Below, in pieces: positions 26,524 through 43,898 of a DNA stretch of 64,000 nucleotides (position 1 is its first letter; each line of letters begins with the position of its first letter). Position numbers and translations under genes: made by a program. Source of the DNA: Gigantopelta aegis (taxonomy: Eukaryota); the NCBI RefSeq assembly GCF_016097555.1, contig NC_054701.1, positions 67,224,366 through 67,288,365 of the forward strand. The letters run 5' to 3'. The notes under the pieces are model-generated. The model had not been told where the DNA came from. It made no database searches and was given only the letters and a program-made list of their open reading frames with translations.

Positions 26524-26663
26524 ATGGCAGCACCACGGAGATCAGAGGAGAATTCCATCTTCCGAATCCCCCCGTACTTCTACCTGCACTGCCTTGACCA
26601 GAATAGCAATGTGACCCGCTTGGAAATCGGGCCCAAGACCTACATCAGACAAGACAATGAGAG
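26524..26663 (+). CDS. MVP: MVP exon 1. Encodes [46 protein letters not shown](R)
   Basis: Matches the vertebrate MVP N-terminus ([43 protein letters not shown], from memory). Donor AG|gtgaga at 26664. Confidence 0.85.
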
Positions 26664-27454
26664 GTGAGACTCAAGATGTACAGTCTTAAAACAGGTCGTA
26701 AATTAAGTATTTGTTGCCCAGGGCGCTGACTTAACAACGGCATCGATGGCAATTGCCGTTGTTGAGATATAAATTGCTGTAGGTAGAGACCATCACCGAT
26801 AGCATTTTTGTGCTGCTGGATAAAAGTTACTGGCAAAATGAATATATCTGGTGTATGTTATCTGTCAGTATTTAACATTTGTACATTTGAAATATGTCTA
26901 CATGCAATAAAATAACCTGTAAGTCATATTTATTTTCTGTGAAAGTTGCCTTTTAAAAAAATTGCCATAGGTTTACTCAAAATTTCCATTGGTGGGCTGT
27001 TTCGCACACAGCAATTGTTTTCTTTTTGATGCCATGGGTGACAAATTCATAAGTTCCAGTCCTGGTTGCCCACAATTTAAAACCCCCAAAAAACTTGTCT
27101 TGGAAAAACAACTCACTAACTGCAATGTTGAATCTGACTACTGCAATTTTTATCAAGTTACTTGCAACAAATAAATATGACTGAAAGATTATTTTGCTGT
27201 ATGTAGACATATTTCTATATACAAATGTTAAATACTGGCAGATAATGTGTACCAGCTGTTTACATTTTGCCATAGTTATAAGCTCTACTGATGGCAGTGA
27301 GGTATATTCCAGCGGCACAAAAGTGCTGTCGGTAATGCCCCTGATCAACAGCAATTTATATCTTGTTAAGTTCAAGCCCTGTTAAAATAAAATCCAATCT
27401 TATTAGGTCACTTTGACCTTTAAGGTCTGTCATTATATCCAGGGCTTCTAGATT

Positions 27455-27840
27455 ATGATGTGGCGTCGTGGCAGGCCATCGGTCTACAGGCTGGTAGGTA
27501 CTGGGTTCGGATCCCAGTCGAGGCATGGGATTTTTAATCCAGATACCGACTCCAAACCCTGAGTGAGTGCTCCGCAAGGCTCAATGGGTAGGTGTAAACC
27601 ACTTGCACCGACCAGTGATCCATAACTGGTTCAACAAAGGCCATGGTTTGTGCTATCCTGCCTGTGGGAAGCGCAAATAAAAGATCCCTTGCTGCCAATC
27701 GGAAGAGTAGCCCATGTAGTGGCGACAGCGGGTTTCCTCTCAAAATCTGTGTGGTCCATAACCATATGTCTGACGCCATATAACCTTAAATAAAATGTGT
27801 TGAGTGCATCGTTAAATAAAACATTTCTTTCTTTTTCTTT
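27455..27840 (+). repeat. tRNA-derived SINE, family B, in MVP intron 1
   Basis: Head ggctggtaggtactgggttcggatcccagtcgaggc. Body is shared with family A. The tail ends ..gttaaataaaacatttctttctttttctttctag. Confidence 0.75.
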
Positions 27841-28904
27841 CTAGATTATGATAGCCCCACTCCCATGGCTTGTGATATCAATGTTGTGCTAGTAAATAAC
27901 TACTAATAAGATGCCCGACGGCTAGTCAATTTTTCTTTGTCAAATGTTGCAGTTAAGTCTTATTTTGTAAATATGATTATGCTGCCCCCACCCCAACCCC
28001 CAATCTTACTGTTTTTAAGCTCTATCTCCCTGTTTATGTGACATATCTGATTATTACTATTATTTAGTAAAATTGTATTAACTTAAAACTAAAGTAGGGC
28101 TGGTGAATTTTTAATTGTGGCTAGTAAAATTTTTTAAATCACTGATCCCATGGCTAGTGGATTTTATAACTATTCTAGTAACCGTGTTATATCTAAGCAA
28201 AGCTCAGGACTAGAAAGTAATGGCTGCGATATCTGTTGTCATCAGTCAACGGCTGTACTGGTTTGAACACTGGTTAAAAAATATTGTGATTGGTTAAACT
28301 TAAAGGGATAATTTTGTGTTTATTTGTTACAAAAATTACTGATTTAAAATAGCAGTAGTCAGGCTCAAAATGGCCAAAACCTTTAAAAATTGCTGTAGGT
28401 AACAAATTATTAAGTTCAAGCCCAGAAAGCCAGTGTCACACGATATTCAGATGATCTGTTATTTGACCAATCAAATTACACTTAATATTGTAGACACTTT
28501 ATATAAAACTTAACAATTGGCTAATTTGGCAATAGACTTGATGAGCCCTTATTATAATTTAATCCCTGATTTCTACTTCATTTCCAGTCTGGGAAAGTGC
28601 ATATAAAAGATACCTTGCTGTATTAGGGAAAAAAGTAGCAGGTTTCCTCAAATGACTACGTGTCAGAATTACCAAATTTTTGACATGCAATCGCCGATAA
28701 TCCGACGCCATATAACCATAAATAAAATCTGTTGAGTGCATCGTTAAATAAAACATTTCCTTCCAATAGCTGATGATGACTTAATCAATGTGCTTTAATG
28801 TTAAACAAAATAAACTTTAACTTTTTTTATGTATGCATGGATCTGCTGGTTTTCTCTCTCAAAACTGGAACAGTTTGTAACATTTTAACTTAATCCCTTA
28901 ATTT

Positions 28905-29240
28905 GTGGGGCAGGACGTAGCCCAGTGGTAAAGCGTTCACTTGCTGCACAGTCGGTCTAGGATCGATCCCCATCGGTGGACTCATTGGGCTATTTCTTGT
29001 TCCAGCCAGTGCTCCACAACTGGTGTAACAAAGACCGTGGTATGTACTATGATGTCTGTGGGATGGTGCATATAAAATATCCCTTGCTGCTAATTGAAAA
29101 GAGTAGCCTATGAAGTGGTGACAGTGGGTTTCCTCTCTATATATCTCTGTGGTCTTTAATCATATGTCTGACGCCATATAACTGTAAATAAAATGTGTTG
29201 AGTGCGTTGTTAAATAAAACATTTCCTTCCTTCGTTCCCT
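28905..29240 (+). repeat. tRNA-derived SINE, family A, full length, ending 23 nt before MVP exon 2
   Basis: tRNA-like head gggcaggacgtagcccagtggtaaagcg..ggatcgatcccc carries A-box-like and B-box-like blocks. Tail ..gcgttgttaaataaaacatttccttcc. Confidence 0.8.
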
Positions 29241-29262
29241 TAGTTTGTACTATAATTTCCAG

Positions 29263-29582
29263 AGTGGTGTTGGGTCCCGAGAAGATGATCATTGTTCCCC
29301 CGCGCCACTACTGCGTGGTGGAGAACCCCGTGATCCGAAACAAGGACCTGGAGATCGCCTTCAATGAGGCGGGGCAGGTCAGGCTTCACCACGCCGACCA
29401 GGAGATCCGCCTCGCCCAGGAGCCGTTCCCACTGTACCCGGGGGAGGTGCTCAAGCAGCCAGTCACACCCCTTAAAGTCGTCCCGGCCAACTCGGCGCTT
29501 CGGCTGAGGGCGATCCTCGACTTCGAAGACCAGACGGGAGAGAAACGGACAGCAGGCGATGAGTGGTTGTTTGAAGGACCAG
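29263..29582 (+). CDS. MVP: MVP exon 2. Encodes (R)[55 protein letters not shown](G)
   Basis: Acceptor atttccag| at 29261-62. Donor G|gtaaga at 29583. Aligns with human [48 protein letters not shown]. Confidence 0.9.
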
Positions 29583-42110: not shown

Positions 42111-42354
42111 ACACGAGGCTGAGCGACTGGAGCAGGAGGCGCGCGGTCGTCTGGAGCGCCAGAAGATCAGTGACGAGGCGGAGGCCGAACGCGCCCGCAA
42201 GGAGCTGCTGCTGTTGCAGGCGAACAGCGCCGCTGTCGAGAGCACAGGGCAGGCAAAGGCCGAGGCTCAGTCCCGCGCCGAGGCGTCCAAGATTGAGGGT
42301 GAGGCAGCCGTCGAACAGGCCAAGCTGAAGGCTCAGGCCATGAAGATTGAGGCG
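42111..42354 (+). CDS. MVP: MVP exon 12. Encodes (R)[81 protein letters not shown]
   Basis: Acceptor tttccttccttcag| at 42109-10. Donor GCG|gtaaga at 42355. Aligns with human [83 protein letters not shown]. Confidence 0.9.
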
Positions 42355-42375
42355 GTAAGATTTGGTTTTGTTTCA

Positions 42376-43127
42376 TACTTTGTTTCTTGGTAACTACCAG
42401 ACAAGACAGATGCCCCATTATATCCATTTGTACCCTGCCTGTTTAGTTTGTTTTATACTTGGTGGTCATGCTTGGTCTTTGTTCTTTCTTGGTAACTACC
42501 AGACAAGACGATGCCCCATTTATATCCATTTGTACCCTGCCTGTTTAGTTTGTTTTATACTTGGTGGTCATGCTTGGTCTTTGTTCTTTCTTGGTAACTA
42601 CCAGACAAGACGATGCCCCATTTATATCCATTTGTACCCTGCCTGTTTAGTTTGTTTTATACTTGGTGGTCATGCTTGGTCTTTGTTCTTTCTTGGTAAC
42701 TACCAGACAAGATGATGCTCCATTTATATCCATTTGTTCCCTGGCTGTTTAGTTTGTTTTATACTTGGTGGTCATGCTTGGTCTTTGTTCTTTCTTGGTA
42801 ACTACCAGACAAGACGATGCCCCATTTATATCCATTTGTACCCTGCCTGTTTAGTTTGTTTTATACTTGGTGGTCATGCTTGGTCTTTGTTCTTTCTTGG
42901 TAACTACCAGACAAGACAGATGCCCCATTTATATCCATTTGTACCCTGCCTGTTTAGTTTGTTTTATACTTGGCGGTCATGCTTGGTCTTTGTTCTTTCT
43001 TGGTAACTACCAGACAAGGCAGATGCCCCATGTATATCCATTTGTACCCTGGCTGTTTAGTTTGTTTTATATTTGGTGGTCATGCTTGGTCTTTGTTCTT
43101 TCTTGGTAACTACCAGACAAGTAACCC
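42376..43127. repeat. Tandem repeat in MVP intron 12: about 7 copies of an approximately 104-bp unit
   Basis: cttggtaactaccagacaagacgatgccccatttatatccatttgtaccctgcctgtttagtttgttttatacttggtggtcatgcttggtctttgttcttt repeats. ORFs 42362-43109 are artefacts. Confidence 0.9.
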
Positions 43128-43164
43128 AAAAAATGTAGTTACATAAAACAAACTTTTAACTCTT

Positions 43165-43512
43165 TTTTTTAGGGGGGGGGGGGGGGGGGGGGGGGGGGGG
43201 GGGCAGGACGTAGCCCAGTGGTACAGTGCTTGCTCGATGCACGGTCGGTCTGGGATCGATCCCCATTGGTGGGCCCATTGGGCTATTTCGTTTCAGGCAG
43301 TGGTATATCAAAGACTGTGGTATGTACTACCCTGTCTTTGGAATAGTGCATATAAAAGAACCCTTGCTGCTTATTGAAAAGAGTAGCCCATGAAGTGGGG
43401 ACAGCGAGTTTCCTCTCTCAATATCTGTGTGGTCCTTAACCATATGTCTGACACCATATAACCGTAAATAAAATGTGTTGAGTGCATCGTTAAATAAAAC
43501 ATTTCCTTCCTT
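43165..43512 (+). repeat. (G)39 tract followed by a family A SINE that ends 41 nt before MVP exon 13
   Basis: Homopolymer 43165-43203. SINE head gggcaggacgtagcccagtggtacagtgc.. and tail ..catcgttaaataaaacatttccttcc. Confidence 0.8.
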
Positions 43513-43553
43513 TAACTCTTTTTTTTTTTTTTTTTAAATATTACTTTCAACAG

Positions 43554-43898
43554 GAGTCTGAGCTGGAGAGACTGACAAATGCTCGCGAGGCTGAACTGAG
43601 ATTCATCAAAGAGCAGAACGAAATGGAGATTGACAAGTCGCGCGAGGTCTCGACCATCGACACGTCCAAGTTCAAGGACATGGTGGAGGCGATCGGTCCG
43701 GACACGCTGCGCATGATGGCCCAGTCCGGCCCCGAGATGCAGGTCAAACTGCTGCAGGCCCTCAACCTCAAGTCCACCCTGATCACCGACGGGTCGAACC
43801 CCATCAACCTCTTCAACACGGCCAACGGGCTGATCGGAGGAATGGTCCCGTACAAGCGCCGCAAGCAACAAGAGGAAGCTGATGATGATTCTGATTAA
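43554..43898 (+). CDS. MVP: MVP exon 13, terminal. Encodes [114 protein letters not shown]
   Basis: Acceptor ttactttcaacag| at 43552-53. Stop TAA at 43896-98. Aligns with human ..[55 protein letters not shown]. The 13 exons sum to 2589 nt, which is 862 codons plus a stop. Confidence 0.9.

Follow-up and report, generated by a model that had tools for sequence, protein, structure and literature searches.

Does this stretch of the genome of the mollusc Gigantopelta aegis hold an intact, functional gene for the major vault protein (MVP), and how does its structure compare with that of its relatives? The DNA analysed, referred to here as the window, is a 64-kb stretch of contig NC_054701.1 (assembly GCF_016097555.1, positions 67,224,366 to 67,288,365 of the forward strand), and all coordinates below count from its first letter. 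MVP makes up the shell of the vault particle. It is ancestral in eukaryotes and has been reported from bivalves, annelids and echinoderms (PMC3762200). Judged from its sequence, the locus is very probably an intact, functional MVP ortholog in a mollusc genome. As such, the gene is an ordinary, textbook MVP ortholog and a new member of a well-known family.

We rebuilt the gene independently of an earlier exon list by locating exon cores with tblastn and then placing the splice sites by hand. A human MVP sequence served as the tblastn query, solely for locating exons; the conclusions are drawn from Pfam, PDB and database homologs. The search returned 13 MVP-like coding blocks between 26.5 and 43.9 kb, all on the plus strand and in MVP order, and tblastn found no second MVP copy within the 64-kb window. 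For the exon tables, three annotated ortholog proteins were mapped exactly to their own genomic loci, namely those of the abalone Haliotis cracherodii (GCA_022045235.1, JAJLRC010000011.1), of Lottia gigantea and of the brachiopod Lingula anatina. The resulting coding sequence runs from the ATG at 26524 to a TAA ending at 43898 and consists of 13 coding exons on the plus strand:

26524 to 26663, plus strand: coding exon 1, 140 nt, from the ATG; donor GTGAGA; Haliotis exon 1 is also 140 nt.
29263 to 29582, plus strand: coding exon 2, 320 nt, an uninterrupted open reading frame (ORF) equal to the comparator exons of 196 and 124 nt joined.
30695 to 30921, plus strand: coding exon 3, 227 nt; the four species agree in this length and in entry phase 1.
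31919 to 32044, plus strand: coding exon 4, 126 nt, equal in Haliotis and Lottia.
33438 to 33548, plus strand: coding exon 5, 111 nt, equal in Haliotis; followed by a GC-AG intron with its donor at 33549.
34403 to 34537, plus strand: coding exon 6, 135 nt, donor AAG/GTAAAA (the slash marks the exon boundary); 126 nt in the comparators.
36380 to 36529, plus strand: coding exon 7, 150 nt in all four species.
38276 to 38514, plus strand: coding exon 8, 239 nt; 239 nt in Lottia, 236 nt in Haliotis and Lingula.
39454 to 39651, plus strand: coding exon 9, 198 nt; length and phase (2) are common to the four species.
40212 to 40353, plus strand: coding exon 10, 142 nt, donor GTTTGT; Haliotis also 142 nt.
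40623 to 40834, plus strand: coding exon 11, 212 nt, a length common to the four species; it completes the shoulder domain and begins the cap-helix.
42111 to 42354, plus strand: coding exon 12, 244 nt in all four species; cap-helix.
43554 to 43898, plus strand: coding exon 13, 345 nt including the TAA; 345 nt in Haliotis.

Together, the exons total 2589 nt and encode 862 amino acids followed by TAA, with no internal stop and a continuous frame (entry phases 0, 2, 1, 0, 0, 0, 0, 0, 2, 2, 0, 2 and 0). All 12 introns end in an AG acceptor, while the donors are GT in 11 introns and GC in one (intron 5). The start methionine in exon 1 aligns with those of Haliotis, Lottia and Lingula MVP, and an in-frame TAA lies 15 nt 5' of the ATG. 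What is left of the cap-helix is encoded by the last exon, as are the cap-ring and an acidic tail at the C-terminus. Introns occupy 14,786 of the 17,375 nt of the locus (85.1%), in a window that is AT-rich (about 35-40% GC) with GC-richer islands. An earlier note on this DNA had proposed the same start (26524), end (43898), 13 exons, 2589 nt and 862 amino acids, and the independent rebuild reproduced each of these exactly. Its consistent splice phases correspond to the continuous frame with a single terminal stop found here, its estimate of about 85% intron matches the measured share, and the N-terminal and C-terminal motif blocks that it named are both present in the translation.

The identity of the encoded protein is carried by profile, structure and homolog searches with the spliced 862-residue sequence. 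All five Pfam vault families were matched far above their curated (gathering) cut-offs: Vault in four stretches (E 2e-70), Vault_2 in two stretches (E 2.4e-36), Vault_3 (E 6.3e-35), Vault_4 (E 2.7e-20) and MVP_shoulder (PF11978), the last at residues 523-640 and over profile positions 1-118 of 118 (178 bits, E 7.6e-53). Residues 8-843 align in a single stretch to residues 3-850 of the solved mammalian MVP (1250-1257 bits, E = 0). A solved N-terminal fragment (3gf5) was also matched, as was the cap fragment PDB 9z5n_B by residues 745-843 (E 4.4e-30), and the cap-helix and cap-ring are thus colinear in sequence with those of the solved MVP. In a collection of 5.8 billion proteins, 3036 homologs were found at E <= 1e-100, the top ones being named major vault protein and coming from molluscs. 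The MVP identity claimed in the earlier note is borne out by these matches, and the check proposed there, a comparison of the spliced protein with the Vault and MVP-shoulder Pfam families, returned both, including the full-length shoulder domain.

By protein identity, the nearest relative found is the abalone Haliotis, whose 'major vault protein-like' sequence matches at 85% identity over the full query. Lottia (82%), Patella, Batillaria, Biomphalaria, several bivalves (about 80%) and Lingula (about 80%) follow. No match in the collection was closer than 85%, hence none reached 90%, and this species' own MVP is accordingly absent from it. The ranks of identity would by themselves make the source most likely a gastropod allied to Haliotis without belonging to it. 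An alignment of nine lophotrochozoan sequences contains 446 invariant columns. The length of 862 amino acids compares with 850-865 in the eight other lophotrochozoan MVPs, and internal gaps do not exceed 3 amino acids, at the junctions or elsewhere. In the predicted layout, vault repeat domains at the N-terminus are followed by an SPFH-like shoulder and a long cap-helix; the cap-ring and a short charged tail complete the protein.

The arrangement of the exons follows that of the orthologs closely, as seen when their lengths (in nt) are set in order:

Gene under study: 140, 320, 227, 126, 111, 135, 150, 239, 198, 142, 212, 244, 345.
Haliotis: 140, 196+124, 227, 126, 111, 126, 150, 236, 198, 142, 212, 244, 345.
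Lottia: 143, 196+124, 227, 126, 237, 150, 239, 198, 145, 212, 244, 342.
Lingula: 134, 196+124, 227, 237, 126, 150, 236, 198, 157, 212, 244, 189+159.

Each of the 12 introns is common in position and phase to at least one of the three comparators. Apart from in-frame insertions and deletions, to which the differences in the exons are confined, lengths and phases are identical. The most distinct departure concerns a phase-0 intron between the 196-nt and 124-nt portions of the second exon, which is kept in Haliotis, Lottia and Lingula but absent from exon 2 (29263-29582); blastn likewise aligns exon 2 to two separate Haliotis exons. As the intron is present in all comparators, including the brachiopod outgroup Lingula, it can be regarded as ancestral, and on these alignments it is precisely lost in the lineage of the gene under study.

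Compared with the abalone gene, 11 of the 13 exons are equal in length and phase when 196 and 124 nt are counted as 320, and the two proteins share the same Pfam set and the same start and stop positions. The Haliotis gene differs in having 14 coding exons, owing to the extra phase-0 intron that splits the counterpart of exon 2, in its counterparts of exons 6 and 8, which are shorter by 9 nt and 3 nt, and in its shorter introns (locus of 13.8 kb versus 17.4 kb). It also carries a GT donor at the position of intron 5, where we observed AAG/GCAAGT (33549-33554), a detail missing from the earlier note. The GC donor is supported by the 111-nt exon, equal in length to that of Haliotis, and by the fact that no in-frame GT donor fits at the exon 5 boundary. 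At a different intron, the Lingula MVP gene carries a GC donor of its own (position 6885 of the Lingula locus). Conservation against the Haliotis locus in blastn was limited to exons. When the whole window was compared with Haliotis MVP and its 10-kb flanks by tblastx and blastn, no conserved DNA was found outside the MVP exons, and this flank comparison detected no synteny, conserved promoter or untranslated exon shared with Haliotis.

Lottia and Lingula resemble the gene under study in protein identity (80-82%), in common intron positions and in keeping the ancestral intron of the second exon as Haliotis does, yet each shows separate intron losses: Lottia fuses the 111-nt and 126-nt exons, and Lingula the 126-nt and 111-nt exons. 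In Lingula, the last exon is also split, and the introns are much shorter (139-608 nt). The mammalian MVP chains (PDB 4V60/4HL8, 2QZV, 9Z4W, 11DR and others) align across the repeat domains, shoulder, cap-helix and cap-ring. Their shoulder region is longer by about 10 residues, which follow FGF(E/D)..., and another C-terminal tail lies past the cap-ring; the human chain is also longer (893 amino acids). The human MVP gene has 15 exons, of which the first is non-coding. The protein under study ends in a short basic-then-acidic tail, unlike mammalian MVP.

The coding sequence also bears the mark of constraint. Against the Haliotis coding sequence, the Nei-Gojobori method over 858 codons gave a non-synonymous rate (dN) of 0.108 and a synonymous rate (dS) of 1.65, hence a dN/dS of 0.066, which is approximate since dS is near saturation. 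The gene is under strong purifying selection. In rat and human vaults, MVP monomers pack laterally, with 39 per half-shell and 78 copies in two halves; the N-terminal repeat domains make up the wall of the barrel and its waist, oligomerisation is driven by the shoulder together with the cap-helix, and closure of the particle falls to the cap-ring. By analogy, splicing of the 13 exons would yield the 2589-nt coding sequence and a canonical MVP of 862 amino acids, of which 78 copies, 39 to each half, would line up laterally to build the barrel of the vault shell, their N-termini in contact at the waist and their C-terminal helices gathered as bundles in the caps. This mechanism is drawn from knowledge of rat and human vaults, from the matched PDB entries and from the background in PMC3762200. 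Conservation of at least about 80% across molluscs, together with the colinearity with solved MVP, suggests that the particle would assemble as these vaults do. The partner components of MVP in the vault are vault RNA, TEP1 and PARP4. Regarding the RNA component, no Rfam family reached its gathering score in the window, and thus no vault RNA was seen, although linkage of vault RNA to MVP is not expected. Seven Rfam matches (E <= 0.5), all well short of their gathering scores, are low-complexity and miRNA-like; all lie outside the gene and none is a vault RNA.

The gene probably extends beyond its coding exons. Two features are found at the borders of the coding sequence:

26480 to 26523, plus strand: acceptor-like stretch, pyrimidine/AT-rich with several AGs, directly 5' of the ATG.
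43916 to 43921, plus strand: candidate polyadenylation signal AATAAA, the first after the stop and 18 nt on; a pattern match only.

The sequence before the start codon reads …ttattattacgtttaacag atttgtcag taagcag cattcag c/ATG, and the stretch 26480-26523 is probably the 3' splice site of an intron in the 5' untranslated region (UTR). In the Haliotis, Lottia and Lingula genes, comparable pyrimidine runs with AG precede the start codon by 10-30 nt, and this similarity suggests a conserved 5'-UTR intron with a non-coding first exon upstream of 26524. Further upstream, the observed-to-expected CpG ratio is about 1.0-1.2 at 24.75-25.75 kb versus 0.2-0.5 in the gene body, and a consensus donor ATTT/GTAAGT at 25558, near an E-box (25504-25509), is a candidate for the end of non-coding exon 1. 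The earlier description of a complete gene accordingly holds for the coding sequence but not for the whole gene, as a non-coding first exon probably lies upstream of its coordinates. At the 3' end, a second AATAAA occurs at 44323.

By self-comparison of the window, repeated DNA accounts for at least 46% of intron bases (27% as dispersed copies and the remainder as tandem arrays), a lower bound as it counts only copies inside the window or in tandem arrays. The earlier note had called the introns almost entirely repeats; this stands for the measured share and is not demonstrated for the rest, and introns 4 and 10 showed no repeated bases in the window self-comparison. The main dispersed family is an element of about 330 bp resembling a short interspersed nuclear element (SINE), of which the window contains 25 or more copies or fragments. 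Twelve of these lie in the MVP introns, 10 of them in the orientation of the gene. The element ends in …GTTAAATAAAACATTTCC(TTCC)n, and one such tail (42087-42110) directly adjoins the exon 12 acceptor AG, for which it thereby provides the pyrimidine tract. Tails are also present 29 nt (29212-29233) and 41 nt (43492-43512) before the acceptors of exons 2 and 13, respectively. A B-box-like GGTTCGCAGCC at about 41895 in intron 11 may be the head of a tRNA-derived SINE.

Tandem Repeats Finder located arrays in four introns: a G-rich 74-nt unit repeated 10.9 times in intron 6 (34687-35497), said to begin a few bases past the donor; (TC)75 in intron 8 (39169-39318); 26-nt and 250-276-nt arrays in intron 11; and a 102-nt unit repeated 7.2 times at 97% identity in intron 12 (42383-43121). 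Introns 11 and 5 also contain copies of parts of exons. Within intron 11 (40835-41655), the final ~35 nt of exon 11 recur four more times, each time with the GT donor and ~30 nt of intron (about 41047-41087, 41323-41364, 41441-41482 and 41591-41631), and are interleaved with a 26-nt AT-rich minisatellite. These copies point to a local tandem expansion that duplicated the exon-intron boundary and made decoy 5' splice sites. In intron 5, a copy of the first 63 nt of exon 6 (34264-34326, 58/63 identical) lies 77 nt 5' of the real exon; its acceptor is changed from cAG to cAA, and a (ACTATTATGC)4.5 microsatellite follows. Read-through of the true exon 11 donor would reach a stop after one extra codon, at codon 668. 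It is most doubtful that the arrays near splice sites are non-neutral, with use of the decoy donors or retention of the intron giving rise to a truncated MVP under regulation; if this were true, the product would keep the repeats and shoulder without the cap-helix and could not close a vault. Homopolymers were also observed, namely perfect G32 and C32 runs (43172-43203 and 44952-44983) and shorter C runs (25770-25782 and 26040-26058), which may be repeat-element ends or assembly-prone sequence.

How secure, then, is the reading of the locus as an intact, functional ortholog? Some observations weigh against it. The donor of exon 6, which exceeds its counterparts in the three comparators by 9 nt, is the least secure of the junctions, and the donor of intron 5 belongs to the rarer GC type. 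The first of these bears on whether the locus encodes MVP with one or more junctions misplaced, or with several isoforms, which we consider unlikely. The junction most open to such an error is the exon 6 donor, since the alternative GAT/GTCGGG (34526) would give a 123-nt exon. The comparator length of 126 nt, against 135 nt here, speaks for such a change, as do the isoforms databased for other molluscs (Littorina X5, Babylonia X2) and the four additional donor copies within intron 11. However, the donor used matches the consensus MAG/GTRAGT at 7/9 positions and the alternative at 4/9, and this weaker match led us to reject the alternative for the primary model. Neither donor yields 126 nt, so that an insertion or deletion is required either way; the extra 9 nt sit in a variable charged loop, which exceeds that of the solved mammalian chain by 1 residue only, and the remaining exons agree with the comparator lengths. 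We infer that the gene is transcribed, that exon 6 ends at the junction given here and that a 5' non-coding exon precedes the coding sequence.

Two further readings concern function rather than structure. Some species contain two MVP clusters, as Physella acuta does at 79% and 74% identity, and trypanosomes are described as using several MVP paralogs (PMC12547018). The locus could by comparison hold a diverged paralog with a function other than the vault shell, as in lineages with several MVP genes, but this is very unlikely given its closest match to single-copy-like mollusc MVPs at about 80-85% identity, its full domain set and its conserved ortholog gene structure. The heavy invasion of the introns by repeats and tandem arrays, including the exon-fragment copies, would fit an unprocessed pseudogene without function, or else a duplicate that was silenced while the true MVP gene lies elsewhere in the genome. 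The 862 codons are nevertheless free of stops and frameshifts, every splice signal is intact, 446 residues are invariant across the nine lophotrochozoan sequences, and dN/dS is 0.066 with dS near saturation. The low dN/dS, the intact frame and the intact splice signals argue strongly against a pseudogene, a reading that we hold to be extremely improbable and have rejected. An intact, functional MVP ortholog remains our preferred interpretation of the locus.

The surroundings of the gene contain mobile elements and GC-rich ORFs:

7689 to 8243: remnant of a Tc1/mariner-type DDE_3 transposase.
10424 to 14106: long interspersed nuclear element with endonuclease and reverse-transcriptase ORFs.
23193 to 24088, minus strand: GC-rich block (58-68% GC) with ORFs of 188 amino acids (Pro/Lys/Arg-rich) and 102 amino acids.
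57.8 to 59.5 kb (in a span of 57798 to 61900), minus strand: GC-rich ORFs with a DIRS-like resemblance.

The ORFs at 23.2-24.1 kb matched no significant Pfam family, and the block at 23193-24088 may represent either a repeat or an exon that belongs to a neighbouring gene. Those at 57.8-61.9 kb likewise had no significant Pfam family; judged by their motifs, which Pfam did not confirm, the minus-strand ORFs at 57.8-59.5 kb presumably resemble the RNase H and tyrosine recombinase of a DIRS-type retroelement. Between two SINE-like fragments, ARAGORN placed a tRNA-like structure with an undetermined anticodon (46967-47039), which may be the head of a tRNA-derived SINE.

As a whole, the locus adds nothing new on vault function. 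It provides a homology-validated MVP coding model for a mollusc whose MVP has no counterpart at 90% identity or above in the protein collection searched, useful for genome annotation and for comparative work on vaults. The loss of an ancestral intron, the change of a donor from GT to GC and the repeat expansions that copy exon ends and splice sites lend it a modest extra value.

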